Shown one piece after another: positions 3,123 through 56,369 of a stretch of 64,000 nt of DNA (position 1 is its first letter; every line of letters begins with the position of its first letter). This stretch comes from Deltaproteobacteria bacterium (GTDB lineage: Bacteria; Desulfobacterota; GWC2-55-46): the NCBI GenBank assembly GCA_038043525.1, contig JBBTBW010000006.1, positions 77,442 to 141,441 of the forward strand. Reading direction: 5' to 3'. Made by a program: the position numbers and the translations under genes. The notes below the pieces were generated by a model. The model saw only the letters and a program-made list of their open reading frames with translations. It searched no databases and had not been told where the DNA came from.

Positions 3123-3185
3123 TCTCGGGCAAGGTCCGACAGAGGTTCTTTATAGCAGGCGCAGGTTTTTTCAGGCTTAACGTTA

Positions 3186-7765: not shown

Positions 7766-8040
7766 AGAGTACGTCTGCCGTGTTTGTCAGGTTCTTCGAG
7801 GATCGGGCGGCAGAAGTTTGAAACAGCCATCAGAGCGAGCGCTGGCAGATGCTCATTAATTGTTTTATCGGATCGAATAGGGGCTGAAGAGGTCTTTCGG
7901 GATAGACTGTGTCGTATGTTTTTCAGGGCTGTTCGGATGTGGGCGGCCGGGTATGGAGGCAAGGGGCCGGAAGGAATGCGGCTGAGCCTTGGGCAGAGCC
8001 ACGTGATATTTTCAGGTGTAGATCCCTTGGAAGGCCGTAG

Positions 8041-10238: not shown

Positions 10239-10275
10239 ATCCCACCTCCGTATGGTTTGTCTGGCTTCTAAACTG

Positions 10276-29891: not shown

Positions 29892-32723
29892 TCAGATGCT
29901 TGGGTCTTCGGCGGCTTTTTTCGCTTCTTCTACCCAGTGCCTTGCATGGTGCTTTAATATGGACTTGAAAAACTCGCTCTCAGGGTTTAGCATCTCGTAG
30001 ACCGTAACCGGGGTCGAGGCCTCGAACCCCTTGAATATGACCTCGCCTGCCTTTACGAAGCCTTCTATCTGTTCTATCCCCCTTACGACAACCACCCCGA
30101 ACCGAAACTCCAGCGTCTCAGATGGAAAGAAAAAAGCCTCTCTGATCGACTCGTCAAAATCACTTGTATCGACGGTCTTTTTGAAGAACATCTTCGTGCC
30201 GCGCGTCTCTCTTATGTATGCGTCAAGGGCGCTTTCGCTGAGCGCCTGCCCTTTGTTGTAGATGTCGGTAGACGCGCTTATGAGCCTCAGTGACGTGAAC
30301 GCTTCGCCGGCTATAATCTTCCCGAGGTCGCTTAAAAACTCGTTGGCCATCACCTTGGACATCGCCTTCGCGGTAGCGGGAGTCCCCCGCGAGATCAGCT
30401 TCTCGAAGGCGTTTTCAAGCTCGGGAGGCATCTTTACGGAATAGGTCCTGTCGATATATATGTCGAAAGGATATTTTTTTTCGTGTTTATTCTTGAATCT
30501 TTCGTTCTCCAGCAACATCTCTAGTTTTGCCCGTACAAGCGGGTTTCTGCTCGTCCCTCTGGCCGCCTCGTTGATCTTCTCTCCGATCGAGACCCTGGCC
30601 GGCTCAGTGAACCCGTGTTGCGCTTCGATGACCATCTCTTCGGCCTTTGCCCCGTATGATATGTAAAGGCCTGCCTCCAGCTCGCCTTGGATGGCCGCTT
30701 CGAGCTCGTCCCTGTAGATGTTCTCCAGCCTGTGCTCTTCTTCTCCAAGGGCTACGAGCCTTGATTCGACCACCGGCTCTTTCCTTTCGATCATGAAGTG
30801 CAGCTCGGCCCTTCTATTCTTGAGGTCCTGCTTGCGCGTTTCGAACCTTTTGTTGACCTCTTCAAGCTTTGCCTCGTCATTCGCAGGCGGTAGTTTCCTG
30901 ATGAGCTGGTCCCGGTAGTTACGCGTTATCTTCTGCAGGTCCCTTGCCAGGGCGACGAGATAGCTGACCCCTCCTGAGAATATGGCGGCGTCGCCCGGAA
31001 GGTTCGTGAGCCTAATGCCCCGCTCATCGGCTATTACACCCATGCCGACCTTGTAACCGCTGGCGGCCTTCAGGATAGGCTTGTAGAAGTGGTCCTTCAT
31101 GAACTCGGCCATCGCGATCTCTTTGACCTTGAGCGTCTTTCTCGTGAAGTCTTTCATGTCGATGAAGAGCTGGCCTTCTTCTTCAAGCTCGAGGGTCTTC
31201 AGAAATGGCCTGTCGTCCGTTGAAAACCTGTAAAGCCTGCCTCTGTTGTATTCTTCGAGGAGCATGTTGGCGCCAAACTCTCCCCTTCTGTCCGCCATGC
31301 ACAGGCGCATGGCGCTTGAGTACTTTTCAATGTGCTCATCAAGGCGGAACGCGTAAAAACCGGAGAGAAAACCGTGGAGGGCAGTGAACTCCTCTTTCCT
31401 TGGAGAGCGCAGGAGTCCGCCGAATACCGACCTTTTGAAAGAGGCGAGGTAGCGCTGGAATGCCGCTATGGATTCGCTCCCTGCCGGGTCCTTTACAAAC
31501 CTCTCTCGCACGTCATCGAGCGCTTTGGACAGGTTTGCCGTCTGCTTGGGTTCGGCGAGCAGATTCCTTATCAGGCGGTCCTCGCCGAGTACGGAGTAAA
31601 GTATGTCTCTTGCCTCGCTCCCGGGAATGTCGAGGTCCATCAGGTGCGCTATCGCCTCCTGTCTGAACCTGATGATCTCGCCCTGTTGTCTGAGAGCGTC
31701 GATGCACTCGGCGTCTTCGAGGATCCTTTCCGCGGACATCTTTATAAGGCCTGCCGCGCTCTCGGTATCATTGGAAAACTCCGAGCCGAAAGGCTCGATA
31801 AGGCTGTATATGGCGGCATTGATGCCGTAAGGATTCTGGGAGTTGGACAAGACGGTCGAGGGTATCGCCGCGAAAGCCCTTGGGGTGATCGCGGAGGTTA
31901 TCAGAAGTTCGGTCGATGGGTTGTAAAACGACGCTCCGGATTCCTTGAGCCTGGAGAAGAGATCGGCTACAGCCCCTGAAAACGCGAGGAAGAGCGACAT
32001 GCCAACGGCCAGGTCGATCTTTTCGTAGGTAAGCCCCTTTATCTTACAGCCCTTGATCCGTTCCTTTTTCTTCCGGAGCGTGCCTAATATGGAAAGGAGG
32101 GCGAGGTACGAGGTCTTTTCCTCGCCGGAGAAGCGAGCCTCTTCCTTGAGCGTCTTTTCAAATATGTCAGAGACCCACTTGATGAACTTTTTGCCGTGGC
32201 CTTCCGGTCCGAACCAGTTCAGGAGTATCGCGCTGTCGATGTACGGGACGGAGCAGATGATCTCGGAGGCGAGTTTTTTTTCGATAGACCCGGTGATGAA
32301 GATATCCGTCCGGTAGGTCTTGTCTTTGAGAGGTTGCGCGGTCTGAGAAAACGGCAGAGGCTGAGCGGCTCCTTCCATCAGCCCTTCGCTTGACCCCAAG
32401 CCTTCGTAGCGCTTGGCAAGCATGGCTATAAGGCTCGATATGGCGTTGTCTATGCAGGCTTCATCGTCCGCACCCATGTGGTACGGGACCTTCAGCTCTG
32501 CTATCGACTCGCCGTGCCTGAACCTCATCCGCGTCGGCTCAAGCATCCACGGCCTGCCGTTTACTATGTCCGCGCTCTTTTTAAGGAGCGTATCAAAGAG
32601 CGCCAGGCGCTCCCTGCTGTAATCTTCAGGCATGTCGATACCAGTTTTTGCGTTGGGTGGCGAACCATGCTGTCTCTTTTGATACAGCTTATAATACTTG
32701 TCTTTGTAAAGCAAGTTTGACAT
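29892..32723 (-). CDS. Large hypothetical protein (943 aa) with a central class-III nucleotidyl-cyclase-like palm domain interrupted by a coiled-coil insertion
   Basis: LFIDMKDFT (metal Asp 1), LPGDAAIFSGG (metal Asp 2) and, after about 100 aa of coiled coil, TEPARVSIGEKINEAARG. This last segment aligns to the cyclase YDVWGDTVNLASR motif. The N-terminal 500 aa and C-terminal 200 aa are unassigned. Confidence 0.5.
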   Translation of the reverse strand: MSNLLYKDKYYKLYQKRQHGSPPNAKTGIDMPEDYSRERLALFDTLLKKSADIVNGRPWMLEPTRMRFRHGESIAELKVPYHMGADDEACIDNAISSLIAMLAKRYEGLGSSEGLMEGAAQPLPFSQTAQPLKDKTYRTDIFITGSIEKKLASEIICSVPYIDSAILLNWFGPEGHGKKFIKWVSDIFEKTLKEEARFSGEEKTSYLALLSILGTLRKKKERIKGCKIKGLTYEKIDLAVGMSLFLAFSGAVADLFSRLKESGASFYNPSTELLITSAITPRAFAAIPSTVLSNSQNPYGINAAIYSLIEPFGSEFSNDTESAAGLIKMSAERILEDAECIDALRQQGEIIRFRQEAIAHLMDLDIPGSEARDILYSVLGEDRLIRNLLAEPKQTANLSKALDDVRERFVKDPAGSESIAAFQRYLASFKRSVFGGLLRSPRKEEFTALHGFLSGFYAFRLDEHIEKYSSAMRLCMADRRGEFGANMLLEEYNRGRLYRFSTDDRPFLKTLELEEEGQLFIDMKDFTRKTLKVKEIAMAEFMKDHFYKPILKAASGYKVGMGVIADERGIRLTNLPGDAAIFSGGVSYLVALARDLQKITRNYRDQLIRKLPPANDEAKLEEVNKRFETRKQDLKNRRAELHFMIERKEPVVESRLVALGEEEHRLENIYRDELEAAIQGELEAGLYISYGAKAEEMVIEAQHGFTEPARVSIGEKINEAARGTSRNPLVRAKLEMLLENERFKNKHEKKYPFDIYIDRTYSVKMPPELENAFEKLISRGTPATAKAMSKVMANEFLSDLGKIIAGEAFTSLRLISASTDIYNKGQALSESALDAYIRETRGTKMFFKKTVDTSDFDESIREAFFFPSETLEFRFGVVVVRGIEQIEGFVKAGEVIFKGFEASTPVTVYEMLNPESEFFKSILKHHARHWVEEAKKAAEDPSI

Positions 32724-35005: not shown

Positions 35006-35872
35006 TTGAGCGCGCATGAACGATTCATAAGGCTCATTGACATGGAATCTGCCGCAGGAAGGAAGATAGAAAGATCTATGGCTTCTATGAGAGAACAGCT
35101 CGTAAACATGTTTACAAGGATAATGGCCGGCACTGTCACTCGCGAAGAGGGGACGATGCTGATAAATCACCTTGTGCGCGCGAGCCAAGCCGAGGCGGTA
35201 AAGGAGCTCTCTGCCCTTATCGAGACCCCGCCTCCCGGGGTATTCCCGAAGACCATACTCCATACCGTCTCGCTTTCAAGGAACAAGGCCCTGCATAATA
35301 TCATAATCGCAGGGCTTGAACACAAGAACGAGGACGTCTCTATCCTGGCGGCTCAGGAGCTGGCAAGCCAGAAGACTGTCGAGGCGAAGAGCGTCCTTGT
35401 TGAGCATCTTGACAGCGAGGTCTATCATGTCAGAAAGGCGTCGGCGATAGCCCTTGCAAGGGGTTTTGCGGATGATGGCCTGGAGATACTAAAGAGGCAT
35501 CTGCTGGAGCATCAGGAGCCTTTTTTCAGATCGACAACCGCGCAGGCCCTTTTGATGGCAGGGAAAAACGGGGTGGAAACACTCTTGAGCATCCTTTCTA
35601 CCGGCAATACCGGCGCCATGGAGACAGTTTCCGAGGTACTAGTCTCCTCGAACGATGCCATCTCAAGCACTGACATCCCAAAGATCTTCGACGCGTTAAT
35701 GAAGGCAGGGGACAGAAAGGATTCATCTGCCGTTATTGCCTTGCTGAAGGTCGCAGGCTCCCTCGGGTACAGGGCCAAAGGCTATGAAGGTTTTGTGATG
35801 GCCTTTACCGACCATCAGTATGATGTGGTAAGAAAAGAAGCGAATAACGCTCTGAAGCATATCAGGGCGTAA
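35006..35872 (+). CDS. HEAT-repeat protein
   Basis: Repeated alpha-helical HEAT/PBS-lyase-like units. Confidence 0.5.
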   Translation: MSAHERFIRLIDMESAAGRKIERSMASMREQLVNMFTRIMAGTVTREEGTMLINHLVRASQAEAVKELSALIETPPPGVFPKTILHTVSLSRNKALHNIIIAGLEHKNEDVSILAAQELASQKTVEAKSVLVEHLDSEVYHVRKASAIALARGFADDGLEILKRHLLEHQEPFFRSTTAQALLMAGKNGVETLLSILSTGNTGAMETVSEVLVSSNDAISSTDIPKIFDALMKAGDRKDSSAVIALLKVAGSLGYRAKGYEGFVMAFTDHQYDVVRKEANNALKHIRA

Positions 35873-36692
35873 TACCTCTGTAGAGCGCTTCCAGCCTTTC
35901 GCTCGCGTTCTTGTGGGCAGGGTCTATGGCAAGGGCGCTCTGGTAGGCTGTGATCGCCTCCTGGTACATCCCGAGCTTTTCATATCCGGTCCCCATCAAA
36001 TTGTACGCCTCGACCATCTCCGGGTTCAGTCTTGCCGCCATTAACAGCTCGTCGACAGCCTCTTTTGTCCGCCCTTCTTTAAGATGCAGTTCGCCTATCA
36101 GCAGCCACGTCCCGGCCTCTTTCGGATCGTATTTGAGGGCGGCCGACAGATGCGCCTCGGCCTCACTGTTCCTGCCCAGGCTCAGGTACGCGCGCCCTGT
36201 GTTGGCGTGCGCTTTAGCGTACGACGGCTTGAGCCTGAGGGCCACGGCGTACATCTCCAGCGCGTCTTCATGCCTGCCAAGCCCGTAGTAAGCAAAGCCC
36301 AGATTGTTGTAAGCCAATGCAAGGTCAGGCTTTAGCGCTATCGCGATGGAGTATTCCCTGATAGCCTCATCAGTGCGGCCTTTTATCTGGTAGATCGCTC
36401 CGACATTGAAGTGCGCCTTTGCGTACCAGGGATACAGCTCGAGCGCGCGGAGGTTCTCTGCAAGCGCCATATCGAAGCTGCCTGTCTCGGCAAGCACAGT
36501 GGCATAGTTGTAGTGAGGGCGGGGTTTCTGAGGGGCCTTGCCTGTGTTGTCAGCCCATAGCCTTGCCGGACTGACCCATACTTCGTTCCTGCTGTGAGTC
36601 GCCCAGGCCAGAGCGGTCGAGATAATGAGCAGGATGATCGTCGGGTATATGGCGGCAGAGGTCCTGATGCTCACGTCCGGCCTCCTTGTCAT
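35862..36692 (-). CDS. TPR-repeat protein with an N-terminal membrane anchor
   Basis: N-terminal TM helix and at least six 34-residue TPR units. Confidence 0.7.
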   Translation of the reverse strand: MTRRPDVSIRTSAAIYPTIILLIISTALAWATHSRNEVWVSPARLWADNTGKAPQKPRPHYNYATVLAETGSFDMALAENLRALELYPWYAKAHFNVGAIYQIKGRTDEAIREYSIAIALKPDLALAYNNLGFAYYGLGRHEDALEMYAVALRLKPSYAKAHANTGRAYLSLGRNSEAEAHLSAALKYDPKEAGTWLLIGELHLKEGRTKEAVDELLMAARLNPEMVEAYNLMGTGYEKLGMYQEAITAYQSALAIDPAHKNASERLEALYRGITP

Positions 36693-36707: not shown

Positions 36708-38639
36708 CTACAGGGACCTTGCGAATGATCTTGCGGCCTTGAACAGGTATATGTTCTCGTTGGAGTCCTGCATATTGGTCTCGTTCAGAATGTACCTGTG
36801 ATCAAGCGAGAAGAGCCATGCCCGGAGCGGATAGACCAGGCTGTTTTGAATGGTAGACGTCCTTGTGAGCTGCCTGTCTTCGCGTTTCTCCGATATGCTT
36901 GAATCAAACTTCCAGGCCATGAGACCTAAAAGAGGCCTGTTGTAACTCGCCCGATACATGGCGGTAGAAGACCTGTCGTTGCCGCCGGCGTATTCGCGCT
37001 CAGTGAGCCTGTATGAAGCGGATAGCTCAAGCGGGCCGCCAAAGAGCACGCTGTTTTGCGAGATGTTCACGCCCTCGGTATCTACGGTTATCCATCCGTT
37101 GGTATCATTGAAAGTCTTGAGGCGCTCGGCGAACCCGGTAAGCGCGGCTGTTTTGAAGAGGTTTGTGCTGGTATCGAGCCTGTATGACTCGGACCTCTGG
37201 TCCATGCCTTCGATCCAGCTTGATGTAGAGCTCTTGTTGGCGCTGCCTGAGACCGAAATATGCTCGACGAAGGCCTTGTTGAAGAAGCTGAGATTGTAGG
37301 TCCTGGTGTTCGTGTTCGTCTTTCCGGTCGTCGATTCGCTCTCGGAAAACGATGCCGACGTGTTAAATCCGATATATTTGTTGAAGTTTATATTGCCCAG
37401 GCTTACCCCGCCGCTTTGGCCTACGGCGGTGCCTTTCTCTTCTCCTACCTCTTCTTCGATGTACGTGCCGCCGTAGGATATGCCCAAAGACGTCCAACTG
37501 AAGGAATCGCCATAGCTGGCTGTTGTAGTGGATGAGAAGGTCTTGTAGTCGCTTGTATTGGTGGATGTGGAATCGCTGGAGTTTGTCTGGCTGTTATTGT
37601 AGTTGACGTTTTCGGAGAGGGATATCGTCCTAGTCAGCTTGTATGTGACGCCTCCGCTTGAGGAGTTGCCGGAAGACTTGCTCTGAGAGCTCTCTGTCTC
37701 GCTCTCGGACTTGTTAAACCCCACAGAGGCACTTGTAGACAGCTCTTTTGAGATGTTGTATGACATGTTTCCTGAATAGGTCGACCCGTTCATGCGCCCG
37801 TCGTCAGAGGTCTTGTAGGCAGAATAGGCATGATGCTGTTGGAAGTCCCTGCTAGGCGCGGAGTTTAGCGAGAAGGAGTAGCCTTCATGCGCTGATTCTC
37901 CGTTTCTGCTGTTCTGTGAGTCGCTCCTTGATCCTCCCGCAGAAAAGGATGTGTTTTTGGAGACTTTGGTTCCGTGGGTCGCGTTTATCTGCCGGGTTGA
38001 CGATCTGTCTCCGGAGCTTGACTTGCTCTCGTTTTTGCGCAGAAATACCTCGTTGGTCGTAGGTCCTATGTCCTTGTCGATGTTCAGGTTAGTAGCGGTA
38101 GTATTATTCTTTGAATTGGCTGATTCCGTCTCCGTGCTGTCGATGGTCAGCTGGAGCTTGGGGAGCTTGGTTGTAAGAAGACGCCACTCGAGCCCGTAGC
38201 CGGTGGTTGTGCCTTTATTCGTGCCGCCGCCGCTGCTGCTTGTGCTCTCTTTTCTTGTCCCGTGCAGGGTCAGCGGGATAGCGGAGTTCGGCAGGATCGT
38301 GGTCTTTACGCGATAGTCAATGTCATCGGTCTCCGTCTCGCTTCCGTTTGTGTCCTGGTTGACGGTTGTGTAAGTAACATTGGCGTCGTATATGAAGACC
38401 TTTCGGGAGACAAGGTTCCCTATAGTGTCAAGCTTATAGCGTTCCGTGAAGTGTGAGTTCTTTGTTTTGTACTGGTCGGTGATGAAGTTTGCTTTTTCGT
38501 ATTCCAGGTATATAGTGCCGGTAAGCGTCCTGTATAAGTAGGGATCCTCTTCGACGCTTAAGCCTTTTGCGGGATAAAAAAGCACCGACGCAAAGGCGGC
38601 TAGAAGCGTTGCCAAATATGTCCATCTGCCGCGGAACAT
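36708..38639 (-). CDS. Secreted Ser/Thr/Asn-rich protein, putative outer-membrane beta-barrel
   Basis: Signal peptide, extreme S/T/N/G bias, alternating hydrophobic patterns typical of amphipathic beta strands, and aromatic residues near the C-terminus. Confidence 0.4.
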   Translation of the reverse strand: MFRGRWTYLATLLAAFASVLFYPAKGLSVEEDPYLYRTLTGTIYLEYEKANFITDQYKTKNSHFTERYKLDTIGNLVSRKVFIYDANVTYTTVNQDTNGSETETDDIDYRVKTTILPNSAIPLTLHGTRKESTSSSGGGTNKGTTTGYGLEWRLLTTKLPKLQLTIDSTETESANSKNNTTATNLNIDKDIGPTTNEVFLRKNESKSSSGDRSSTRQINATHGTKVSKNTSFSAGGSRSDSQNSRNGESAHEGYSFSLNSAPSRDFQQHHAYSAYKTSDDGRMNGSTYSGNMSYNISKELSTSASVGFNKSESETESSQSKSSGNSSSGGVTYKLTRTISLSENVNYNNSQTNSSDSTSTNTSDYKTFSSTTTASYGDSFSWTSLGISYGGTYIEEEVGEEKGTAVGQSGGVSLGNINFNKYIGFNTSASFSESESTTGKTNTNTRTYNLSFFNKAFVEHISVSGSANKSSTSSWIEGMDQRSESYRLDTSTNLFKTAALTGFAERLKTFNDTNGWITVDTEGVNISQNSVLFGGPLELSASYRLTEREYAGGNDRSSTAMYRASYNRPLLGLMAWKFDSSISEKREDRQLTRTSTIQNSLVYPLRAWLFSLDHRYILNETNMQDSNENIYLFKAARSFARSL

Positions 38640-38911: not shown

Positions 38912-39727
38912 TTATTTCGACCAGGCGCAACGGAAGCCGACGTCATCGAAGAGGCCTTCCGGTGGGGCGGCGTTCCTGAACGCTGTCCGCACATATACCT
39001 GAAGGTTGTAGTGTCCCATGCCACCCCAGCCGCCGCCGCGCACGACCTTGAACTTCTCGCCGTAGTCCTTGTCGTTAAAGTCGTTTCCGGGATACTGCTT
39101 GTACCAGTCGGAGGTCCATTCCTGCGCGTTTCCGGCCATGTCAAGGAGACCGTACGGGCTCTTGCCTTCTGTGAAAGTACCTACGGGAGTCGTCCCTCCG
39201 TAGGCGCCAAGCGTGTTTACTTTTTTGTCATCGAATTCCGCGCCCCACGGGAACCTGTTGCCGTCAGTACCTCTGGCGGCCTTTTCCCATTCAAGCTCGG
39301 TCGGCAGGCGCTTGCCTTTCCACTGGCAGTAGTCCTGAGCGTCGTACCAGCTGACAAGGATCACAGGGTGGTCGGCGATCTGCGCCGGGTATCCGTTAGC
39401 CCATCCAGCCGGGAGCCTGTGGCTGGTCTTGTCTGCGAACTCCTTGTACATGGCGTTCGTCACTTCAGTCTTATCTATGTAGAACTCGCCTATCGACTCT
39501 TTCCTCTCAGGCCTCTCGTTTGCGTACCAAGGCCGCCTGTCGCCGTACTGGAGCGCCTTTGCCTCTTTATCTACCTCGTTGCTGCCTACGATAGCATCGC
39601 CCTTTGGGATCTGTATCATGTCCTGAGGCGGTTTCTTGCATCCGAACGGCAGAAGAAGTATTGCGGATAGGAAGAGTATTTTAAGGCCTGTCCTTCCAGC
39701 GATAGACTGCATTATTGAGACCTCCAT
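38912..39727 (-). CDS. FGE-sulfatase (SUMF1/EgtB/PvdO) domain lipoprotein
   Basis: WYDAQDYCQWKGKRLPTELEWEKAARG...RGGGW matches the FGE-sulfatase domain signature. N-terminal lipobox PFGC. Confidence 0.75.
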   Translation of the reverse strand: MEVSIMQSIAGRTGLKILFLSAILLLPFGCKKPPQDMIQIPKGDAIVGSNEVDKEAKALQYGDRRPWYANERPERKESIGEFYIDKTEVTNAMYKEFADKTSHRLPAGWANGYPAQIADHPVILVSWYDAQDYCQWKGKRLPTELEWEKAARGTDGNRFPWGAEFDDKKVNTLGAYGGTTPVGTFTEGKSPYGLLDMAGNAQEWTSDWYKQYPGNDFNDKDYGEKFKVVRGGGWGGMGHYNLQVYVRTAFRNAAPPEGLFDDVGFRCAWSK

Positions 39728-39923
39728 GGGAATATTGCATATTGAGATACGATCCGGCGAAGCCTGCGACAGGTAGCCGCAAAGGCCCTGAGCTCATTGG
39801 TTTTTACCCGCGTTCAGGCGGCTTTAATGCCCTCATCTCTTGCCCTCCTTAAAAAGAGGGCAGGGGACGGCGCTTGTTTCGCGTCGTAAAAACCTCTGTG
39901 GCCGGATAGAGTGCGCGCCTTAT

Positions 39924-40946
39924 CTATTTTGCACCGGTAGCGCACCTGAACCCGAAGTTGTTGTTCCTGGTGTGCGGGTGAAAAAATATTCTATTGTAAG
40001 CAGGCGAGCTTATCCCGCACTTGTAGTTTGTGCAGTCGAACCATGACCCGCCTCTTAGGACCTTGAACTTCTCCCCGTAGTTTTCATCCGAGTGGGTATT
40101 GCCTGGGTAGGGCTTGAACCAGTCGTCTACCCATTCGAATGCGTTTCCGGCAAGGTCATAGACGCCGTACGGGCTTTTACCGCTCTCGAAGCTGCCTACC
40201 TGCATGGTGTCTTCGTTGCCGAACTGCGGAGTATTACCTTTGTTCTTGTCGAACTGGTCCCCCCACGGGAACGTTCTTTTGTCTGTGCCTCTGGTGGCCT
40301 TTTCCCACTCGCGTTCTGACGGGAGCCTCTTGCCCTCCCACTTGCAGAAGGCATCAGCGTCATACCAGCTCACGAATACTACGGGATGGTACTCTTTGCC
40401 TTCCGGTATCCTGCCGTCTGTCCAGTGGCCCGGAGCTTTAACCTTGCCGGCATCTACAAATGCCTTATACCGCTTGTTCGTGACCTCATACCTGTCTATA
40501 CGGAAGGCGCCGAGGCTTTCCTTGTGTTCCGGCTGGCTCTTGGGCCACCAGTCGTTAGAACCCATCGTGAACTCGCCGGCAGGCACAAGCGCCATCTCAT
40601 TAAACTGTCTGGCAGATCTCTTTTTTACAGCGCTCATGACCGGTGTCGCGCCGTCCGCGCTGCTCGCCACCATGAATCCGCCTTTAGCGTCATGAGGCGT
40701 CCTGAACCTTTCGTTTATGCTTACATAATTTTCGCTAAGCCCCGGGCCGTGGCATCCTACGCATGTCTCGTCTCTTGTATAATCCGTTGAGTAGCGTCTC
40801 TCCGGAGTGTGGCAGTCCATGCATTTGGGCTCGCCTGTGACCGGGTCGTAATCGCCGCTTTGGGCCCCTGCCTGGTGCGCATAGGCAAAAAGGCCTAAGG
40901 CCAGCGCGAATGCCGGAACAATGGCATACTTGATCTTTTTCTTCAT
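39924..40946 (-). CDS. Dihaem cytochrome c fused to an FGE-sulfatase (SUMF1-like) domain
   Basis: Signal peptide, CMDCH and CVGCH haem-binding motifs, then WYDADAFCKWEGKRLPSEREWEKATRG...RGGSW. Start placed at ATG 40946 with an AGGAAA RBS. Confidence 0.7.
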   Translation of the reverse strand: MKKKIKYAIVPAFALALGLFAYAHQAGAQSGDYDPVTGEPKCMDCHTPERRYSTDYTRDETCVGCHGPGLSENYVSINERFRTPHDAKGGFMVASSADGATPVMSAVKKRSARQFNEMALVPAGEFTMGSNDWWPKSQPEHKESLGAFRIDRYEVTNKRYKAFVDAGKVKAPGHWTDGRIPEGKEYHPVVFVSWYDADAFCKWEGKRLPSEREWEKATRGTDKRTFPWGDQFDKNKGNTPQFGNEDTMQVGSFESGKSPYGVYDLAGNAFEWVDDWFKPYPGNTHSDENYGEKFKVLRGGSWFDCTNYKCGISSPAYNRIFFHPHTRNNNFGFRCATGAK

Positions 40947-41000
40947 GATATTTTCCTGTGCTAGGGCGGCAGACTGCAAAAGTCTTACCCGCCAGGATGG

Positions 41001-41486
41001 TTACTTCTTTGATTCCTCGGCCTGTTTGCCTTCGCGTTCAAGTTGTCTTATGAAGGCCAGCACCGACCACCTCTCTTTTTCCGAGAGTATATCTGCCCAT
41101 CTCGGCATCGACATCGCCTCACCGCCGATTTCCTTGTGTATGCCTAAGGTGATGGATTCATACAACTCATTATCCGTCTTGGACATCCTCTTAGTGTCGG
41201 CTACGAAATCAGCAGGGTGCGGCGTGAGCGCGATGCCGACAGGGCCGTCGCCGCGGCCCTTCTGTCCATGGCAGAAGTGGCAGTACCTGAAGTAGATCTC
41301 TTTTCCAACGACAGTATCGGCTGACGCCTGTGTCGCTGCTTGGCTCGTTACTGTCTGCGGTCCAGTCGCGGCCTTCTCTTTTTTACCGTCTCCGGGCGAA
41401 CATCCGTAGAGTGCCGCTGAGCCGATCAGTAGCACTAACAATGCCGGAAGCCGCGCGGCCGGATAGAACGATCTCTTTATTTTCAT
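41001..41486 (-). CDS. Monohaem class I c-type cytochrome
   Basis: Signal peptide with lipobox-like LYGCS, haem site CHFCHG and a distal Met (SMPRW). Confidence 0.7.
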   Translation of the reverse strand: MKIKRSFYPAARLPALLVLLIGSAALYGCSPGDGKKEKAATGPQTVTSQAATQASADTVVGKEIYFRYCHFCHGQKGRGDGPVGIALTPHPADFVADTKRMSKTDNELYESITLGIHKEIGGEAMSMPRWADILSEKERWSVLAFIRQLEREGKQAEESKK

Positions 41487-41551
41487 GATATGAAGCCCTT
41501 TTCCTGATGGTCTTGCAACCATGCCCGTCCATTATTTCGTATCCAGCCGCC

Positions 41552-42586
41552 CTATTTCTTGTCGAGGTATTCGATCTTGGCGACGCTTTTCATCTCTGTT
41601 ATCCATGCATTCCAGAGCATCTTCTGTTCTTTTGACTCGAGTTCCTTTTCGAGTTTTTCCTTGTTCAGATCTTCAAACTTCTTTTGTGTGGAGACCTTCC
41701 GATCTACCAGCTTGACTATGTGATAGCCGTATATGGTTGAGACAGGCTCGCTGACCTCGCCTGGCTTCATCTTTTCGGCGGCCGCGTCTATCTCATCGAA
41801 GAGGCTTCCTTTGTGCGCCCAGCCCATGTCGCCGCCGTTCTTGGCGTTGGGGTCTTCAGAGTGCAGCTCTGCGATCTTGGCGAAGTCCTCACCGGCCCTT
41901 ATCTGCTTGAGTATGTCCTGCGCCTTTTTAAGAGAGGCGTTCCATGCCTTTTGACCGCCTGACGGGTCGGCCTTTATAAGGATAGACTTCAGGTGTATCT
42001 GTTCCGGCTCCTTGAACTTGGCGAGGTTCTTGTCGTAGTAAGCCTTCATGAATGCTTCGTTTACGGCGTTTTCGGCTTTTTTCTTGAACTCCTCTATCTT
42101 CTTCTGCGAGACGCGGGCTACGAGTATCCCCATCTTCATGTCAAGTTTGAGTTCATCCATCGTCATATTGCTTCTTTTAAGGACGGCCTCGAGCTTATCG
42201 CCTTTGGGCAGGTTTTTCTTTATCACAGCTATCTTGGCGTCGACCTCTTTTGCCTTTACGTCGTCCATCTTATTCTCAACGGCGTACTTGAAGATCAGCT
42301 CGTTGGTGACGATTTTTTCAAGGGCCTGGGCGCGGATCTGCTTGAGGCGCTTCTCGCTGACGGATGAATGGTACGATACGATCGGCATGAGGTTGTTTAT
42401 GGCTATCTCGAGGTCCTCTTTGGTTATGTCCCTGCCATTGACCCTGGCTACGATCTCAGGCGTCCTGGCTGAGACGGCCGCCGGTGCGTCTTTTGCTTGC
42501 ACTGACTCCGCACCGTAAAAACCTGCCGGCGAGAGCAGCATTAGAAAGACGGACATTGCCAACGTTTTTCTGGAAAGATAGGCCAT
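41552..42586 (-). CDS. SurA/PpiD-like periplasmic chaperone with a parvulin PPIase domain
   Basis: Signal peptide, a chaperone domain and a C-terminal parvulin motif GGDMGWAHKGSLFDEIDAAA...GYHIVKL. Confidence 0.75.
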   Translation of the reverse strand: MAYLSRKTLAMSVFLMLLSPAGFYGAESVQAKDAPAAVSARTPEIVARVNGRDITKEDLEIAINNLMPIVSYHSSVSEKRLKQIRAQALEKIVTNELIFKYAVENKMDDVKAKEVDAKIAVIKKNLPKGDKLEAVLKRSNMTMDELKLDMKMGILVARVSQKKIEEFKKKAENAVNEAFMKAYYDKNLAKFKEPEQIHLKSILIKADPSGGQKAWNASLKKAQDILKQIRAGEDFAKIAELHSEDPNAKNGGDMGWAHKGSLFDEIDAAAEKMKPGEVSEPVSTIYGYHIVKLVDRKVSTQKKFEDLNKEKLEKELESKEQKMLWNAWITEMKSVAKIEYLDKK

Positions 42587-42909
42587 TTCGATACCTCCGA
42601 TTTTAATGACTGCTGATTATAATATAAAGTCATGTAAATATAAAACTAAAAAAACAAAGGCTCAGGCTTGAAAAATCTCCGCAATCTGACGCCTGTCTAT
42701 TGTATTCGGAGACCTTTAAATGCGTATTAGTCTTAAATTAAAAATTTTTAATGGGAGGCAGGCCGCTCCAGCGTTCTAAGGCCCGAAAAAACCTCACTGT
42801 AAGTACCTATCGGCTCTGACAGATAGATAATTGAGGAAAATCTGGGCACGGTCTTTCAGCCTTTAAAAAGCAGAGATAACCCATCTTCGATCGTCTGCCG
42901 GTATAGAAA

Positions 42910-42944: not shown

Positions 42945-43620
42945 GCTATGCGGTTTTGACGCCGCAGAGTTTTTTTTACTTGTTGCGGCAGGTTCTGCAG
43001 AGGCCTGAACCGGAGTTGCCGCTGACCCTTCTGAGGAAGAGACCGTTGGACTCTTCTTCAAGATCGAGCACCGCTACGTTCGTGTAGGTGGAATCCACCT
43101 CGTTGTACACTTGTTGTTGAAGTGCGGGTCGTGGCAGGAAGGAGCATAAAGGAGGCCGACGAGCAGGCTCGGTATCTACTCAGTGCGGGTTCAAGTTTGC
43201 AACTTGAACCCGATAATTCGTCAAGGCGCATTTTGAGATTTATGGAGCAGGTTGCAAACCTGCTCCCGCCATAGGCGTAGACAAGGTTCCGGCCTTTGAA
43301 TTTATCCTTTGTCTTGAAACAAACCCGGGCCATGGCGTAGCGAGCCTGACTGAGAGACGACGAGCAGGCGGCGGGTGTGACCCGCCCTACCGCCTGAAAG
43401 AGAGCGATGCGAGTCATACCCAAAAAGCCGCACGGAAGTGCAAAGCTAAAATCAGACCTATATTTTTTGCAAGGGGCCGTTAGAGCCAAACCAGAAGCTC
43501 ACGGTGGTGCGCAAAAAGAAAATCAGCAAATACATGACCGCTGGAATAGTTGCTTTGTCATTGGCGTCAAACAAAACCCGGACCGTGGCGTAACGAGCCG
43601 TATTAAGCTCAAGTAAGAAA
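42945..43620. repeat. Gene-free region of about 0.7 kb with internal direct repeats and multiple hairpins; candidate structured ncRNA locus
   Basis: The motif aaacaaa(a)cccgg(g/a)cc(a/g)tggcgta(g/a)cgagcc occurs twice, at 43316 and 43567. Hairpins are ggagcaggttgcaaacctgctcc, ggcgggtgtgacccgcc and the palindrome cgggttcaagtttgcaacttgaacccg. No ORF with an RBS is present. Confidence 0.5.
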
Positions 43621-43669: not shown

Positions 43670-44728
43670 TTACTTCTTCGCCGGTGCGGCTGATGCTGCG
43701 GCCCGTGCCTTAGACTTCTCGCCGAGGAATTCAAATACCTCGACCCTTCTGTTCCATGAGTCGACGATATATATATAGTCGTTTTTGTCTATCGCCGCGC
43801 CGGAAGGAAGCACCATCTGACCGCGCTCGTTGCCGTAGCTGGCGAACGGCAAGAGGATCTGGCCCTCATCATCGAAGATCTGTACGTTGTTGAAGGCCGA
43901 GTCCACGACATAAACATGGCCTTCGCTGTCTACAGCGATGCCTTTAGGCCGCGCGAACATCCCTGCGGCATCGCCGAACTGGCCGAAGGCCCGTATGAAC
44001 TTGCCCTCGGAATCGAATATCTGCACCCTGCCGTTCATCGTATCTACTACGAATACCCTGCCTTTGGGGTCGACCGTTATGTTAGATGGAAAGTTGAAGT
44101 GGCCTTCCTCTTTGCCGCGCTTCCCGATAGTCCTGATAGGCTTGAGCGTTTCAAGGTCGAAGACCCGTATGTCATGCGTGTGCGTGTCCGTTACGTAGAG
44201 CTTCTTGTTGATGTTGTCGGATATTATCCCCGTAGGCTGCTTGAACGGGACATCAGGTGTGATGTTGGTGATGAATTTGCCGCTCGCGTCATAGATCGCG
44301 ACCTTGTCGTCTTGCGAGTCGGTGACGAATATCCTGCCGATGTGGTCGACTGTGACGCCTATAGGCTTGTAAAGGGTCCGAACCCCGCCCATCTCCGAGA
44401 GTGTAGTGGTGGTCTTTTTCTCGGGATCGATTATGAACACGTCGCCAGCGGCCGTATCGGTAACATAGATGCGGCCCTTGTCGTCTGCATATATGCCGTT
44501 TGGCTTTTTAAGGGCTGACGAGGCCTCGGCGCCAAGTAGTATGTCTGCCGCTATGGAGGACTTTTTGAAGTCCAGGTTATCGCTCCCCCTGTAATCCCTT
44601 AGGTATTTTATGCGGGGCTCGTCAGGAGGCGCCGGCCAGTACAGGTCCGGGAGAGGAGGGGCCGCACAGCCGTATACGATAATTGGCAGAGCAACAAGCA
44701 TCAACAGCTTTTTCAGGGTGGCCTTCAT
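43670..44728 (-). CDS. NHL-repeat (six-bladed beta-propeller) lipoprotein
   Basis: Lipobox VYGC and repeated NHL units (YVTDT, FVTDS, YVVDS, YIVDS). Confidence 0.75.
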   Translation of the reverse strand: MKATLKKLLMLVALPIIVYGCAAPPLPDLYWPAPPDEPRIKYLRDYRGSDNLDFKKSSIAADILLGAEASSALKKPNGIYADDKGRIYVTDTAAGDVFIIDPEKKTTTTLSEMGGVRTLYKPIGVTVDHIGRIFVTDSQDDKVAIYDASGKFITNITPDVPFKQPTGIISDNINKKLYVTDTHTHDIRVFDLETLKPIRTIGKRGKEEGHFNFPSNITVDPKGRVFVVDTMNGRVQIFDSEGKFIRAFGQFGDAAGMFARPKGIAVDSEGHVYVVDSAFNNVQIFDDEGQILLPFASYGNERGQMVLPSGAAIDKNDYIYIVDSWNRRVEVFEFLGEKSKARAAASAAPAKK

Positions 44729-44904: not shown

Positions 44905-45534
44905 TTATCTCCACCGTTCCCTCTCCATAGACTGTCCTTTAAGCACTATATGGCATCTTATGCAGTTCTCCCTCGGCCAGAAGGTGAAGGCGACCTTGCC
45001 GTGGCATCTGCCGCACCATTGGCCCTGGAATATCTCGTCCATGCTTATCGGGTTGGCGCCGGCCTCAGGGATGAATATCTTTGGATGGCAGTTGTTGCAA
45101 CTCAGCCAGTATGTATGTATCGAGTGAGGAAAAAGGACGTTTGCCATAAGCGGCACCTTTGCCTCAATGAAGATGTTGAGGTGTAAAGGGGCGTCTTCCT
45201 CCACGCCTGGCTCGATGGCGCTCTTCGGGTTAATGTAACCCTGGACAACCGCAGCCGTCCAGTTGACCTCGCCGGCTGTATCTTTTGGAAGCGAGTCAAG
45301 GGCCTCTATCTCGGTCGTGCCGGGCCTGATAGAGGATCTCCTGGCTACCTCTTTGTAAAAGTTCTCGTAATAGTCGTCGAAATTTTGAGGAGGTGCTACA
45401 ACCGGCTTGCTTACATCGGTGCTGACGAGCTGGTCTATGGACTCGCCAAGCCCGCACCCTGTCAATAAGAAAAGGGAAATGACTGCCGCAGCGGCGAGGG
45501 GGAGCGCGTTGAGGTATCTGAAAAATGCTTTCAC
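44905..45534 (-). CDS. Trihaem c-type cytochrome lipoprotein
   Basis: Lipobox LTGC. Three CxxCH motifs (CNNCH, CGRCH, CIRCH) packed into the C-terminal 60 residues, as in c7/c3-type cytochromes. Confidence 0.75.
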   Translation of the reverse strand: MKAFFRYLNALPLAAAAVISLFLLTGCGLGESIDQLVSTDVSKPVVAPPQNFDDYYENFYKEVARRSSIRPGTTEIEALDSLPKDTAGEVNWTAAVVQGYINPKSAIEPGVEEDAPLHLNIFIEAKVPLMANVLFPHSIHTYWLSCNNCHPKIFIPEAGANPISMDEIFQGQWCGRCHGKVAFTFWPRENCIRCHIVLKGQSMERERWR

Positions 45535-45689: not shown

Positions 45690-46910
45690 ATGTCAGAACA
45701 AAAGGTTATATGGTCATTCGGCGGCGGTAAGGGCTTGATAGAAAAAGGCGTTGCCGTCGCTAATATCGCGTGCGGCCTCGCGCTAAGCGGAGCGCGTGTC
45801 CTTCTTGTCGATGCCGATCCGCTCGGCACAGGAATGCATACCTTTTTCAGCGACGAGAAGCCCTCCTACGGGTTCGATGACTTTCTTAGCGGCAGTGTGG
45901 CAAGCCTGGCGGATGTCTCTTGGGAGACTGGTGTTGACGGCCTTAGGCTGGTATCCGTCGGCACCGGGTTTTTGAGGCTGGCCGACCCGGATTTCCCCAT
46001 GAGAAAAAGGCTTTTAAAAGAGGTTTGGGACCTTGATGTCGGCTATATACTCGTAAACCTCGGTTCAGGCGCTTCCGGGGACATACTTGATTTTTTCTCT
46101 CTGTCAGATGAAGGGATTATTCTCCTTTCGCCAGAGCCTGTGTCAGTCCAGGGCGGGTTTGATTTTCTCAGGGGTTTTGTCTACAGGCGGTTAGCGATCA
46201 TCTTTTCAGATGATCTCGCTGTCTCGGCCCTTATAAGCGAGGCTACAGACGCGAGGGGGCATAACCCGGTAAAGACTTTTTCAGACCTGTGCGAGCGGAT
46301 AGCATCCGTTGACAGGGATGGCGCGCAAAAGGCTATATCGGAAATAAAAAGGTTCGCTCCGCAGTTGCTCCTGAATATGGGTGGCGCTCAGGAAGATGTC
46401 GGTGCGCCAAGCGCCCTTGCTTCAGTCTCAAAGAGGTTTTTGGGTCTCGATACCGGCTTTATCGGGACCATCCATTCAGGGACCGGGGTCGGCTCCGCCG
46501 GAAGGGCGCGTCTGTTCATGCTCGACGGCGGCGAAGCAGATGCGAGCAAGGAAATCGAAGACATTATCTCTTCCCTTATCGGAGAGCGGCAGGAAGCACC
46601 TGTGCCGGTACAATCTATTGTTGGTTCAGGTCCTGGCGCACAGGCGCAGGTCCAAGAGGTGTTCGGTTTTAATGACAACGTATATCATGAGGACTCGGTC
46701 ATGCACGTCCAGACAGAGGTGCAGGGCGGAGAGGACCCGTCCATAGAGACGATCATCTATCATGGCGGAAGGATATTTTTCTCAAAAAAAACACTCTGGT
46801 CGTCTCTTGCCCCTGAAGTGGTAAGCGCTGGGATCAAGGACTTCGCTACGCGCCAGCACAGGGTCGCGATAGCCGCGATAAAACTGAATAAAATAAGTTT
46901 CAAAGGTTGA
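45690..46910 (+). CDS. MinD/ParA-superfamily protein with a degenerate Walker A and a long C-terminal extension
   Basis: SFGGGKGLIEKGVAVANIACGLALSGARVLLVDAD parallels MinD/FlhG (KGGVGKTT...LxDxD), but the P-loop is non-canonical. Confidence 0.5.
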   Translation: MSEQKVIWSFGGGKGLIEKGVAVANIACGLALSGARVLLVDADPLGTGMHTFFSDEKPSYGFDDFLSGSVASLADVSWETGVDGLRLVSVGTGFLRLADPDFPMRKRLLKEVWDLDVGYILVNLGSGASGDILDFFSLSDEGIILLSPEPVSVQGGFDFLRGFVYRRLAIIFSDDLAVSALISEATDARGHNPVKTFSDLCERIASVDRDGAQKAISEIKRFAPQLLLNMGGAQEDVGAPSALASVSKRFLGLDTGFIGTIHSGTGVGSAGRARLFMLDGGEADASKEIEDIISSLIGERQEAPVPVQSIVGSGPGAQAQVQEVFGFNDNVYHEDSVMHVQTEVQGGEDPSIETIIYHGGRIFFSKKTLWSSLAPEVVSAGIKDFATRQHRVAIAAIKLNKISFKG

Positions 46911-46913
46911 TCT

Positions 46914-47615
46914 ATGGGCGCTTTAGTCGGTCTCTTAGGCGGTTCGTTCGAGTTTATAAGCAGGTTTGCAGATCTTTTGCGGGACTGCGGGTTTGATCCG
47001 GTGGTCGGACCGTCCGATGCCGGGCTGTCCAGGGCAGGCGAGGTAAGTATTTATGAGGTCACTGACAGGTCTGTTTGCGAGTCGCTCCTTGAAAAGGACG
47101 GCACAGAACCGTTCTTGGTCTATTCGGACCTTCAATTTACCCCTGAGGAGCTTGTCTCGCTCAAGGCAAAGGGATTTGTAGGCGCGATAACGACAAGGAC
47201 CTCGCCGGAGGATACGGCATTCCTTGTGAATAAGGCGCTTTTTTACTCCAGGATGTTAAAGAGGAATCCGCGCGTTCCGGTAAGCCTGCCGGTGGAGCTG
47301 TCTGTAGGGGTAAGGGTATTAAAGACAACCGCCTCGATGCTCAGCAGGGACGGGATCTTCGTCATCACGATGAACCCTCTGCCGGTAAACTCGCTCTGTG
47401 ATCTTGCATTCAGACTGCCAGGGCCAGAGCATACCTTTAAGACCGTATCAAGAGTCCTGTACAATATAACCATCAACAAGGAACTGGGCATAATCGCAGA
47501 CCCGAGGGACCCGTTCAAAAGGCTTGTGGCGCATCCCGGCATGGCAATGCTCTTCGTTGATATGAGCGTTGATGACAGGGCGCTGATAGAGGCGTATATA
47601 GAGACTATCTCCTGA
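46914..47615 (+). CDS. PilZ-like (non-canonical) domain protein
   Basis: KRNPRVPV...TASMLSRDGIFV approximates the PilZ RxxxR/DxSxxG motifs with substitutions. Lies 4 nt after the MinD-like gene. Confidence 0.35.
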   Translation: MGALVGLLGGSFEFISRFADLLRDCGFDPVVGPSDAGLSRAGEVSIYEVTDRSVCESLLEKDGTEPFLVYSDLQFTPEELVSLKAKGFVGAITTRTSPEDTAFLVNKALFYSRMLKRNPRVPVSLPVELSVGVRVLKTTASMLSRDGIFVITMNPLPVNSLCDLAFRLPGPEHTFKTVSRVLYNITINKELGIIADPRDPFKRLVAHPGMAMLFVDMSVDDRALIEAYIETIS

Positions 47616-55319: not shown

Positions 55320-56369
55320 TCATCCGTTATTGTCAGGCCTCGGCCTGCGGACGAGTTCCGCGCGTTCGCCCCTGAAAAAGAGGAGTAAGACCATCCCTGC
55401 TACCAGTATCGAAGAGCCGACTATGATGAGCGTGATGCCCGGGTCTTTGTTTATAGTGAGTACGACATACTCTTTCGTATCATAGTCGACGAGGGTTATC
55501 ACCGATCCGGCGAGAGGTACGCTCGCTCCCGGCTCTTTTAAAGGGAGGTACGCGGCGGCTCCGTCAGAAGATACGATCTCCGCGTATGGGTTTACGAACT
55601 CAGGTGTGAGCGAGGTCGGCCTGCCGCCGCTGTCAAGGGCGAAGTCCGGATATACGCCGCCGAACCTGAAGGGTTTTCCGCCCGGCCCTGCGAAGCCGGA
55701 AGAGAATGGGGCGTTGACTTTAAGCCCGTCTATATCGAGCACAAGCCCTTTCGGGGCGCTGCCCTGATCGGCATGGTAGAAGGCGATGCCTTTGTAGATG
55801 AGAGGCCCGTTTATCTCTATCGGCCCGGTCGTTATCTCTTTTTTTTCGCTGTCAAGGAGCGTGACCGTAGTCCTCAGATATTCGAGTCCGCCTTCAGGGC
55901 CGGACCGGGCCTCGAACTTATCGAGCCTGACGAAAAGGCCTTGCGAGCCCGGTACAGGTCTGGCCGTGCCAGCATAGAGCATATTGTCGTAGCTTCTGAA
56001 TCCCCACGCGCTACCGGCGAGGTGTCCGAGCAGGGCAATGAGAAATCCTACATGGACTATGTGCGGGAATAGCGCCTGCCAAGGCTTTTTAGCCTTTATG
56101 ACGGCGTAGACCTTGTCGATCGTGCATACGAGGGTATTCATTCCGAAGGCCGCCGTCAGGAATATAAGCGCCCATATCCAGAGGGTGAGGCCCAGGTACT
56201 TTGTTCCCGCGGAGAAGAGAAGCGGCAAAAGCACGGACTGGTCGAGCGCCATCGAAAAGCGCGGGTTCGCCATGGAGATCAAGGACCCCCATGCCGCTAC
56301 CGTGCATATCAAGACCGCCAGAACGACCGTAAGGTATATGGATGCGAAAAAAGACCAGAGCTTTTTCAT
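55320..56369 (-). CDS. ResB/Ccs1-family cytochrome c biogenesis protein (system II)
   Basis: N-terminal TM, a large periplasmic domain, C-terminal TM helices, and a conserved His in the first helix region. Confidence 0.55.
   Translation of the reverse strand: MKKLWSFFASIYLTVVLAVLICTVAAWGSLISMANPRFSMALDQSVLLPLLFSAGTKYLGLTLWIWALIFLTAAFGMNTLVCTIDKVYAVIKAKKPWQALFPHIVHVGFLIALLGHLAGSAWGFRSYDNMLYAGTARPVPGSQGLFVRLDKFEARSGPEGGLEYLRTTVTLLDSEKKEITTGPIEINGPLIYKGIAFYHADQGSAPKGLVLDIDGLKVNAPFSSGFAGPGGKPFRFGGVYPDFALDSGGRPTSLTPEFVNPYAEIVSSDGAAAYLPLKEPGASVPLAGSVITLVDYDTKEYVVLTINKDPGITLIIVGSSILVAGMVLLLFFRGERAELVRRPRPDNNG

Follow-up and report, generated by a model that had tools for sequence, protein, structure and literature searches.

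A conserved gene module built around an FGE-fold protein fused to a predicted dihaem cytochrome c domain

The module in the window and its products

In a 64-kb stretch of the genome of a Deltaproteobacteria bacterium (GenBank assembly GCA_038043525.1, contig JBBTBW010000006.1, positions 77,442 to 141,441; hereafter the window, with coordinates counted from its first nucleotide), an uninterrupted run of minus-strand genes at 35.8-45.6 kb includes one whose product joins a predicted dihaem c-type cytochrome domain to a formylglycine-generating enzyme (FGE)-sulfatase domain. We refer to this dihaem-FGE fusion protein as A, to the FGE-domain lipoprotein encoded next to it as B, and to a third lipoprotein paralog found in some relatives as C. 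An original prediction, made from the DNA sequence alone, had placed four genes here in a strand-consistent run, encoding A, B, a c-type cytochrome and a SurA/PpiC-type chaperone, and the open reading frame (ORF) positions, all on the minus strand, agree with it. Domain search (PF03781) and motif analysis further established that the fusion, the second FGE paralog and the dedicated cytochrome c are all real. The core genes and their motifs, in the order of transcription, are:

41001..41522, minus strand: predicted class I monohaem cytochrome c lipoprotein (PF00034, PF13442), with CHFCH at 41268-41282
39924..40946, minus strand: protein A, dihaem-FGE fusion, 340 amino acids (aa) from the ATG at 40946, in an ORF that opens with TTG at 40979
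40809..40823, minus strand: haem-binding motif 1 of A, CMDCH, residues 42-46
40749..40763, minus strand: haem-binding motif 2 of A, CVGCH, residues 62-66
40008..40052, minus strand: signature loop of A, GGSWFDCTNYKCGIS, residues 299-313, with Cys305-x4-Cys310, a candidate Cu(I)/redox site
38912..39727, minus strand: protein B, FGE-domain lipoprotein (PF03781, E 4.4e-54)
39008-39037, minus strand: signature loop of B, GGGWGGMGHY, residues 231-240

Protein A consists of a Sec signal, a dihaem c-type domain (residues ~31-82), a flexible linker (~83-117) and an FGE-sulfatase domain (~118-340). The ATG at 40946 is its likely start, giving a protein equal in length to the nearest homolog, and MEK6759135.1, from a Deltaproteobacteria metagenome-assembled genome (MAG), has an identical sequence. 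A matches PF03781 with an E value of 6.5e-55 over profile positions 3-254 of 255, and B matches it over positions 3-255; both belong to the FGE-sulfatase superfamily. When an AlphaFold2 (AF2) model of A was compared with the PDB by Foldseek, ToxD, CalU17, FGE and EgtB were all retrieved at probability 1.00 with E values of 1e-17 to 1e-21, and the search does not separate these four as the closest fold.

The haem domain of A gave only sub-threshold Pfam matches (c3/paired-CXXCH families; c3_2 at 19 bits vs a threshold of 25). With its Sec export signal and two invariant CxxCH motifs, A nevertheless qualifies as a c-type cytochrome in which covalent haem attachment is predicted. Within the dihaem domain (~40701-40856), the clade that includes the window conserves Y33, Y52, D55, Y56, R58, Y74, R80 and Y81, all of them Tyr, Asp or Arg; apart from the CxxCH histidines, neither His nor Met is conserved there as a potential distal ligand. 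A second clade (see below) has one further conserved His, in a GHP motif past the second haem motif. Another domain or subunit may supply the distal haem ligands; alternatively, one of the haems may be five-coordinate. The linker that follows, of ~35 aa, varies in sequence between homologs and is often rich in Lys and Ala. A gene for a ResB-like protein of the System II cytochrome c biogenesis pathway lies at 55320-56369 on the minus strand, and its presence ~15 kb away from the cluster fits the large number of c-type cytochromes that the window encodes.

Protein B carries the lipobox LPFGC with Cys30 as the lipidated residue, and neither B nor C has Asp at position +2. A and B share 46% identity, compared with ~29-31% between A and FGEs, and A and B are ~22-31% identical to FGE-fold proteins of solved structure. 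In the B family, neither a CxxCH motif nor a Cys pair was found in any of the 120 listed clusters; the lipobox is present in 94 of the 120, and the loop RGGGWGGxGHY is maintained, its counterpart in C being GGSWGL[ST]HRF. In a neighbour-joining tree, A, B and C are each monophyletic and group together apart from other FGE-like proteins and human FGE. The phylogeny proposed in the original prediction thus sets the three apart as a group of their own, at the resolution of a rough tree.

The third core protein, of 173 aa, matches PF00034 (E 4e-9; 38.1 bits vs a threshold of 21.3) and PF13442 (E 1.5e-8; 35.3 bits vs 27). It has a lipobox (LYGC), one haem-binding motif (CHFCH) and a distal Met within MPRW, features by which it is predicted to be a class I cytochrome c.

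Conservation and variation of the module

Two sets of homologs were compared, with related loci designated L001, L002 and so on. Clade 1, that of the window, comprised the best 120 homologs of A, all from MAGs, with 87-100% query coverage and 53-88% identity. Clade 2 comprised the 120 listed matches to the A relative of L009, which is 40% identical to A; the hosts are Thermodesulfobacteriota, Nitrospinota and Nitrospirota MAGs. In clade 1, exactly two CxxCH motifs, 20 residues apart, occur in 120/120 sequences, and so does the loop GGSW[YF]DCTxYKC. In clade 2, two haem motifs are present in 118 of 120 members, the first being CX3CH in 57, and the loop GGS[WYF]x[DNS]Cxx[YF]xCG[IL]S is kept by all 120. 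Across both clades, at 39-88% identity, the haem motifs are thus retained in 238 of the 240 listed homologs, so that the conservation in orthologs on which the original prediction had staked itself was borne out, and the Cys-x4-Cys loop, with the overall consensus GGSW-x-D-C-x-x-Y-x-C-G-I-S, is found in 240/240. The conservation of the haem motifs goes far past what chance would give.

An alignment of 112 sequences spanning the same identity range contains 12 invariant residues, namely C42, C45, H46, C62, C65, H66, S301, C305, C310, S313, P315 and N318. Judged from sequence, invariance of this kind is more the mark of a precisely built site than of a scaffold. The full-length fusion forms few clusters at 50% identity, ~8 within the top 150 of a representative search, in which giant multi-FGE-domain proteins dominate the list. 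No cultured-organism source was found among the A family members that were looked up by name.

The gene neighbourhood is conserved as well. The cytochrome c gene lies directly 5' of A, often overlapping it, in every module read except L086, L008 and L010, and it overlaps or abuts A in nine independent contexts. In clade 1, B adjoins A in every locus read, apart from an optional intervening gene described below. In clade 2, the core consists of cytochrome c, A, B and C and stands alone in unrelated neighbourhoods, such as after lptD (L087), after a FecR-like gene (L088) or beside mla genes (L094); in L009, the genes directly upstream of cytochrome c/A/B/C (685-3131) encode a divergent member of the COX1 family (62 bits) and a prenyltransferase of the UbiA family that may be haem O synthase-like. 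The core module of cytochrome c, A and B, with or without C, therefore recurs as a unit in Thermodesulfobacteriota, Nitrospinota and Nitrospirota MAGs and in unrelated contexts. The clade 2 cytochrome c proteins share, at their C terminus, the motif L-C-x-C-x-[YF]-[ED]-G, which has no counterpart in the cytochrome c of the window; their genes lie at L009 3725-4246, L011 9541-9894, L087 7622-8038 and L088 7528-8004.

Several variants depart from this plan. In the Nitrospinota-type locus L086, the fusion gene stands alone. The Nitrospirota loci L008 and L010 encode a haemless A-type protein that has the Cys pair, and in L008 its gene is followed by one for a B-type lipoprotein, between serS and rho. 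In L011, the cytochrome c gene is followed by a gene (9839-10861) for a dihaem protein whose FGE domain is of the B type (GHY loop, no Cys pair), and then by one for a C-type lipoprotein; in the neighbour-joining tree, this dihaem protein falls inside the B subfamily. The haem domain has thus moved from A to B in L011, suggesting, as evidence of the Rosetta-stone type, that the paralogs act together. L008 to L011 were among the matches listed by a scan of genome contigs with a generic FGE pattern and do not amount to a census.

Around the core, the window encodes the following further features of the minus-strand run:

44905..45534, minus strand: c7-type trihaem cytochrome lipoprotein (PF14522, E 3e-12; TIGR04257, E 1.6e-17)
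43670..44728, minus strand: NHL-repeat beta-propeller lipoprotein (Pfam NHL, E 7.6e-30)
42979..43146, minus strand: tetrahaem cytochrome remnant, a pseudogene (tblastn)
41552..42586, minus strand: SurA_N/PpiC-type peptidyl-prolyl isomerase (rotamase Pfam, E 1.8e-23; SurA_N_3, E 3.6e-12)
36708..38639, minus strand: 643-aa Cys-free, Ser/Thr/Asn-rich secreted protein, probable outer-membrane beta-barrel
35862..36692, minus strand: TPR protein, 276 aa (Pfam TPR families, E down to 2e-35)

The intact genes are transcribed in the order c7 trihaem cytochrome, NHL protein, a gap of ~1.1 kb, PpiC, cytochrome c, A, B, 643-aa protein and TPR protein. The PpiC gene, which the original prediction had placed downstream, thus precedes the cytochrome c gene, i.e. 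lies upstream, and it is the probable opening gene of the transcription unit. A promoter-like site was found 5' of it (42616-42644, minus strand), in a scan that scored promoters no better than shuffled sequences. Rfam and tRNA scans revealed nothing relevant at the locus. The c7 trihaem protein scored 63 bits against TIGR04257 (cut-off 40). The NHL lipoprotein scored 190 bits against the model of the scytonemin periplasmic protein ScyF (cut-off 350), which probably reflects shared NHL repeats only.

This arrangement is the clade 1 form of an extended cluster, in which the order c7, NHL, tetrahaem cytochrome, PpiC, cytochrome c, A, an optional SpeE-like gene, B, a ~635-690-aa protein, TPR and HEAT is kept across loci at 56-88% identity. 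The SpeE-like gene encodes a membrane protein of 520-540 aa with a domain like that of spermine/spermidine synthases (PF01564) and lies between the FGE genes, overlapping A, in L001-L006; it is absent from the whole window, where 39728-39923 separates A from B, and from L090, L092 and L093. The two FGE genes, described earlier as tandem, are indeed adjacent here, but only because the lineage of the window lacks the gene that splits them in L001-L006. Between the NHL and PpiC genes, relatives have an intact gene for a tetrahaem cytochrome (306-376 aa, four CxxCH motifs). Searches with the L004 and L001 proteins as tblastn queries found in the window only the last ~55 aa of it, frameshifted and with the final motif CRTCH changed to CRTCR. 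A and B of the window are intact and 88-89% identical to their nearest relatives, suggesting that their function is independent of the lost tetrahaem and absent SpeE-like genes.

In clade 1, the gene for the barrel-like protein is always 3' of B and is followed by that for a TPR protein of 265-276 aa. The 643-aa protein of the window has a signal peptide and no Cys, and at least its ortholog in L004 ends in an aromatic residue. It gave no Pfam or NCBIfam match itself, while weak matches to PF13505 (OMP_b-brl) were obtained for three of seven orthologs (best E 1.6e-4), and a profile of the family matched no PDB sequence. It is probably a large outer-membrane beta-barrel. A porin-cytochrome conduit (PCC) of the MtrAB type combines an MtrB/OmbB-type outer-membrane barrel with a periplasmic cytochrome of at least 8 haems that inserts into it. 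The 643-aa protein matched no MtrB/PioB model, the cytochromes here have 1-4 haems, and clade 2 modules have no barrel. A 645-aa ORF at 5828-7765, considered as a possible paralog of the barrel-like protein, showed no similarity to it. The PpiC gene is likewise confined to the clade 1 extended cluster and absent from clade 2 modules. The earlier suggestion that the SurA/PpiC protein may assist folding looks less likely: the core module occurs elsewhere without it, and a SurA-like chaperone would more naturally serve the probable 643-aa barrel.

The cysteine loop and known FGE-fold proteins

FGE is an unusual mononuclear Cu(I) enzyme that is widely used for aldehyde tagging. Two cysteines, C336 and C341 in the human enzyme and C269 and C274 in the T. 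curvata enzyme (tcFGE), hold Cu(I) linearly; the substrate Cys joins the copper, the O2 pocket is lined by Ser266 and Trp228, and Arg276 touches the substrate thiolate (PMC6676471). The substitution W228F cripples tcFGE (PMC6676471). Turnover takes two external electrons, for which the physiological reductant is unidentified (PMC12123546).

Protein A resembles the FGEs from human (SUMF1), S. coelicolor and T. curvata in its PF03781 fold (Foldseek E ~1e-17, TM-score ~0.65 on the target) and in several elements of this site. Its Cys pair lies in the same loop, at +4/+9 from the GGS serine and -14/-9 from the next conserved Arg, compared with +3/+8 and -13/-8 in human FGE, and both pairwise HMMER and MAFFT alignments place the two cysteines one column off human C336/C341. 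The FGE serine (S266 in tcFGE) is retained as the invariant S301, and the structural disulfide C218-C365 of the human enzyme as C201-C335. Human C346 forms a disulfide with C235, which has no counterpart in A, so that no disulfide of that type could form and the Cys305/Cys310 pair is predicted to be free. The differences from FGE are equally clear: A has an N-terminal dihaem domain, a predicted periplasmic location, a Cys-less paralog or paralogs and a cytochrome c as partners, and a loop of the form DCxxYxCGIS (CxxYxCGIS) where FGE has C-H-x-S-Y-C-x-R-Y-R.

The original prediction was to be refuted by loss of the FGE catalytic residues from both paralogs. The sequences do not refute it: in A, a Cys pair within one residue of the FGE position occurs in 240/240 homologs and the Ser is kept; B has lost the pair. 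The companion proposal to look for the Fe-binding residues of EgtB turned out not to be a meaningful test, because those ligands sit in a DinB domain that A lacks.

EgtB, OvoA, OvsA and SenA are cytoplasmic enzymes. They are also O2-dependent oxidative enzymes acting on thiols or selenols, and their family provides the best partial NCBIfam match of A (TIGR03440, 121 bits, residues 195-347); their Fe site and catalytic Tyr, however, need the N-terminal DinB_2 domain. Identity of A with EgtB, OvoA or SenA was rejected for want of this domain and on scores far below the cut-offs (TIGR03440, 121 vs 360; NF041186, 113 vs 420; TIGR04344, 57 vs 400). PvdO, ToxD and CalU17 are FGE-fold proteins without FGE activity, of which PvdO is periplasmic, and ToxD is the best PDB match of A both by sequence (E 6.5e-32) and by fold (E 2e-21). 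Unlike A, none of them carries haem, the aligned segments of ToxD and CalU17 have no Cys pair at the loop position of A, and no biosynthetic cluster is present at the A locus. PvdO itself was rejected, with NF051459 scores of 55 bits for A and 41.5 bits for B against a cut-off of 500 and no pvd genes.

B and C, as FGE-fold lipoproteins that probably reside in the outer membrane and have no catalytic Cys, recall PorK/GldK of the type IX secretion system (T9SS), the more so as the clade 1 module lies beside a barrel-like gene. B is ~270 aa, compared with more than 400 aa for PorK, and identity with PorK/GldK was dismissed on TIGR03525 scores of 79-80 bits vs 350 and the absence of T9SS genes from the window. 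The nitrite reduction-linked NirV was also considered: tblastn found many rhizobial FGE-like genes of ~36% identity on plasmids, the one inspected, on Ensifer pT173e, being unannotated, not beside nirK and devoid of the Cys pair.

Enzymes with an attached c-haem and a dedicated class I cytochrome c that feed or drain the catalytic domain offer another comparison; cytochrome c-fused NirK, the dihaem CcpA and the flavocytochrome c FccAB are examples of cytochrome-fused or cytochrome-paired enzymes. In A, the catalytic domain has the FGE fold instead. The literature, of which our coverage was incomplete, yielded no account of the module or of any FGE-fold protein fused to a cytochrome, an absence that is not proof. 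Members of the family appear in databases as 'FGE family protein', 'SUMF1/EgtB/PvdO family nonheme iron enzyme' or 'gamma-glutamyl hercynylcysteine S-oxide synthase', names that are generic transfers unsupported by the evidence here.

Proposed function and alternative readings

The invariant haem motifs, the Cys pair and the conserved gene unit make an electron-transfer-coupled FGE-like oxidoreductase, as originally suggested, the most economical reading; the catalysis, the metal and the direction of electron flow belong to the following model. A would be an FGE-superfamily redox enzyme with its reactive centre in the Cys305-x4-Cys310 loop, where the two thiolates would most likely hold Cu(I) as they do in FGE. 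The tethered dihaem domain, together with the lipoprotein cytochrome c encoded beside it, would wire A to respiration, with electrons passing from membrane electron carriers to the class I cytochrome c, then to the mobile dihaem arm and on to the Cys-pair/Cu site. These electrons would take the role that dithiothreitol or glutathione plays for FGE in vitro, and would support an O2-dependent oxidation of a thiol substrate, which could be a small molecule or a peptidyl-Cys. B and C would probably be membrane-anchored partners in a complex with A, with a part in docking, in presenting the substrate or in anchoring close to the outer membrane. We tentatively favour this reading, at a probability of roughly one in three (0.35).

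Several observations weigh against it. Within the loop, the Cys pair sits one residue away from its place in FGE, and a profile alignment pairs it with human C341/C346 instead, a pairing that we regard as gappier and less parsimonious on sequence grounds. Trp228 of tcFGE is replaced by Phe270 (GNAFEW) in the window clade, with Trp present in clade 2, and Arg276 by a conserved Ile312, two residues after the second Cys (Leu in L086). The AF2 model built from 112 sequences has a pLDDT (predicted local distance difference test score) of 77 overall, above 90 in the FGE core and below 50 in the linker; loop residues 303-312 are the only low-confidence part of the FGE domain, also below 50, leaving the geometry of the site open, and a model from 61 close homologs (pLDDT 64) did not resolve the Cys loop either. 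The L011 locus encodes no Cys-pair protein, so that the pair is dispensable in some variants. The MAGs of many hosts carry the annotation Thermodesulfobacteriota or Deltaproteobacteria, a lineage that is mostly anaerobic and for which an O2-dependent reaction is not obviously useful. Where an operon pairs an enzyme with a dedicated cytochrome c, moreover, the enzyme is more often a dehydrogenase, with the cytochrome as its electron acceptor.

A bolder form of this reading, which we consider doubtful, is that the module represents an unrecognised class of periplasmic oxidase or oxygenase, with an FGE-type Cu(I) centre driven by respiratory electrons, a non-sulfatase substrate, and B and C as obligatory subunits. 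If true, it would be a natural answer to the question of how FGE-type copper-oxygen chemistry is re-reduced in vivo. The pairing of c-type haem with the FGE fold would be a new cofactor combination for the superfamily, set in a conserved three- to four-gene module, and an FGE fold with built-in haems and its own cytochrome c would offer a testable model for electron delivery to a copper-thiolate centre. As the hosts are uncultured bacteria from groundwater, sediments and the ocean, the module may point to an unrecognised envelope redox function, such as the handling of oxygen, thiols or copper, in widespread lineages of biogeochemical importance.

Among the alternatives, the one that survives best, though we think it unlikely, is a non-catalytic scaffold, in which A, B and C, through their FGE (C-type-lectin-like) fold, organise an outer-membrane electron conduit and the haems relay electrons from periplasmic cytochromes (c7, tetrahaem, cytochrome c) to a complex of the 643-aa barrel. 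It would account for two lipoproteins without Asp at +2, for the missing Cys pair of B, and for the placing of the clade 1 module among c7, NHL, tetrahaem, SurA-like, probable barrel and TPR genes. Non-enzymatic FGE-fold proteins do exist, with PorK structures among the matches and the type VI secretion system immunity protein Tsi3 as a further case (10.1101/2021.05.21.445229). Yet the core module does without the barrel, c7 and NHL genes in clade 2 and Nitrospirota, the window has lost its tetrahaem gene while keeping A and B intact, the GldK/PorK scores are far under the cut-off (80 vs 350 bits), and the invariant Cx4C-GIS-x-P-xx-N loop resembles a reactive or metal site.

Electrons could also run the other way. 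A would then be a periplasmic dehydrogenase or a thiol/sulfur oxidase whose Cys pair serves as a redox disulfide or persulfide carrier, and electrons would pass through the dihaem domain and cytochrome c to a terminal oxidase, by analogy with FccAB, TsdAB and SoxAX. The pairing of an enzyme with a dedicated class I cytochrome c, here one weakly like MoxG/PedF/CcoP-type domains, fits such a scheme, as does the COX1-family gene beside the L009 module. A Cys haem ligand is known in sulfur-oxidising cytochromes, and an unusual ligand of this kind could be accommodated in the window clade, which has no conserved distal His/Met. We judge this quite unlikely: the FGE fold has no known dehydrogenase cofactor, its characterised catalytic relatives (FGE, EgtB, OvoA/OvsA) all use O2 as oxidant, and ORF scans found no sulfur-oxidation genes in the window.

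A role in copper handling appears improbable. Under it, the Cys pair would bind Cu(I) and the haems reduce Cu(II), making A a cupric reductase or chaperone that supplies copper to haem-copper oxidases or Cu nitrite reductase, in the manner of NirV, or detoxifies it. Linear bis-Cys Cu(I) coordination is the resting state of FGE (PMC6676471), the FGE-family protein NirV is linked to nitrite reduction (10.1101/2021.05.21.445229), and L009 lies beside COX1-like and UbiA-family (putative haem O synthase-like) genes. The window and most loci, on the other hand, have no cop, sco, pcuAC or cuproenzyme genes, and this role leaves two or three FGE paralogs unexplained.

Finally, a canonical periplasmic FGE that matures Sec-exported Cys-type sulfatases with the cytochromes as reductant, as the FGE fold, the Cx4C pair, the conserved Ser and the public annotation 'formylglycine-generating enzyme family protein' would have it, is very improbable, because no CxPxR motif occurs in any ORF of at least 100 aa in the window, no sulfatase domain was found in the scanned window ORFs or among the genes tabulated for the related loci that were read, the Trp228 and Arg276 equivalents are not kept in the window clade, the loop consensus differs, and A is closer to its own Cys-less paralog (46%) than to FGEs; on present evidence, the module is not a sulfatase maturase.

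Outside the cluster, large ORFs without a Pfam match encode proteins of 645 aa and 266 aa (5828-8584, plus strand) and of 943 aa (29892-32723, minus strand). At the position syntenic with the 943-aa ORF, L001 and L002 have an unannotated gene of 903-938 aa, the likeness being one of size and position only. A divergently transcribed gene pair at 45690-47615 on the plus strand encodes a ParA/MinD-like ATPase, whose C-terminal region is like the RomY N-terminal region (NF053858, 56 bits vs a cut-off of 50), followed by a PilZ-domain protein; the synteny of these two genes with the cluster extends to L001 and, in part, to L004.

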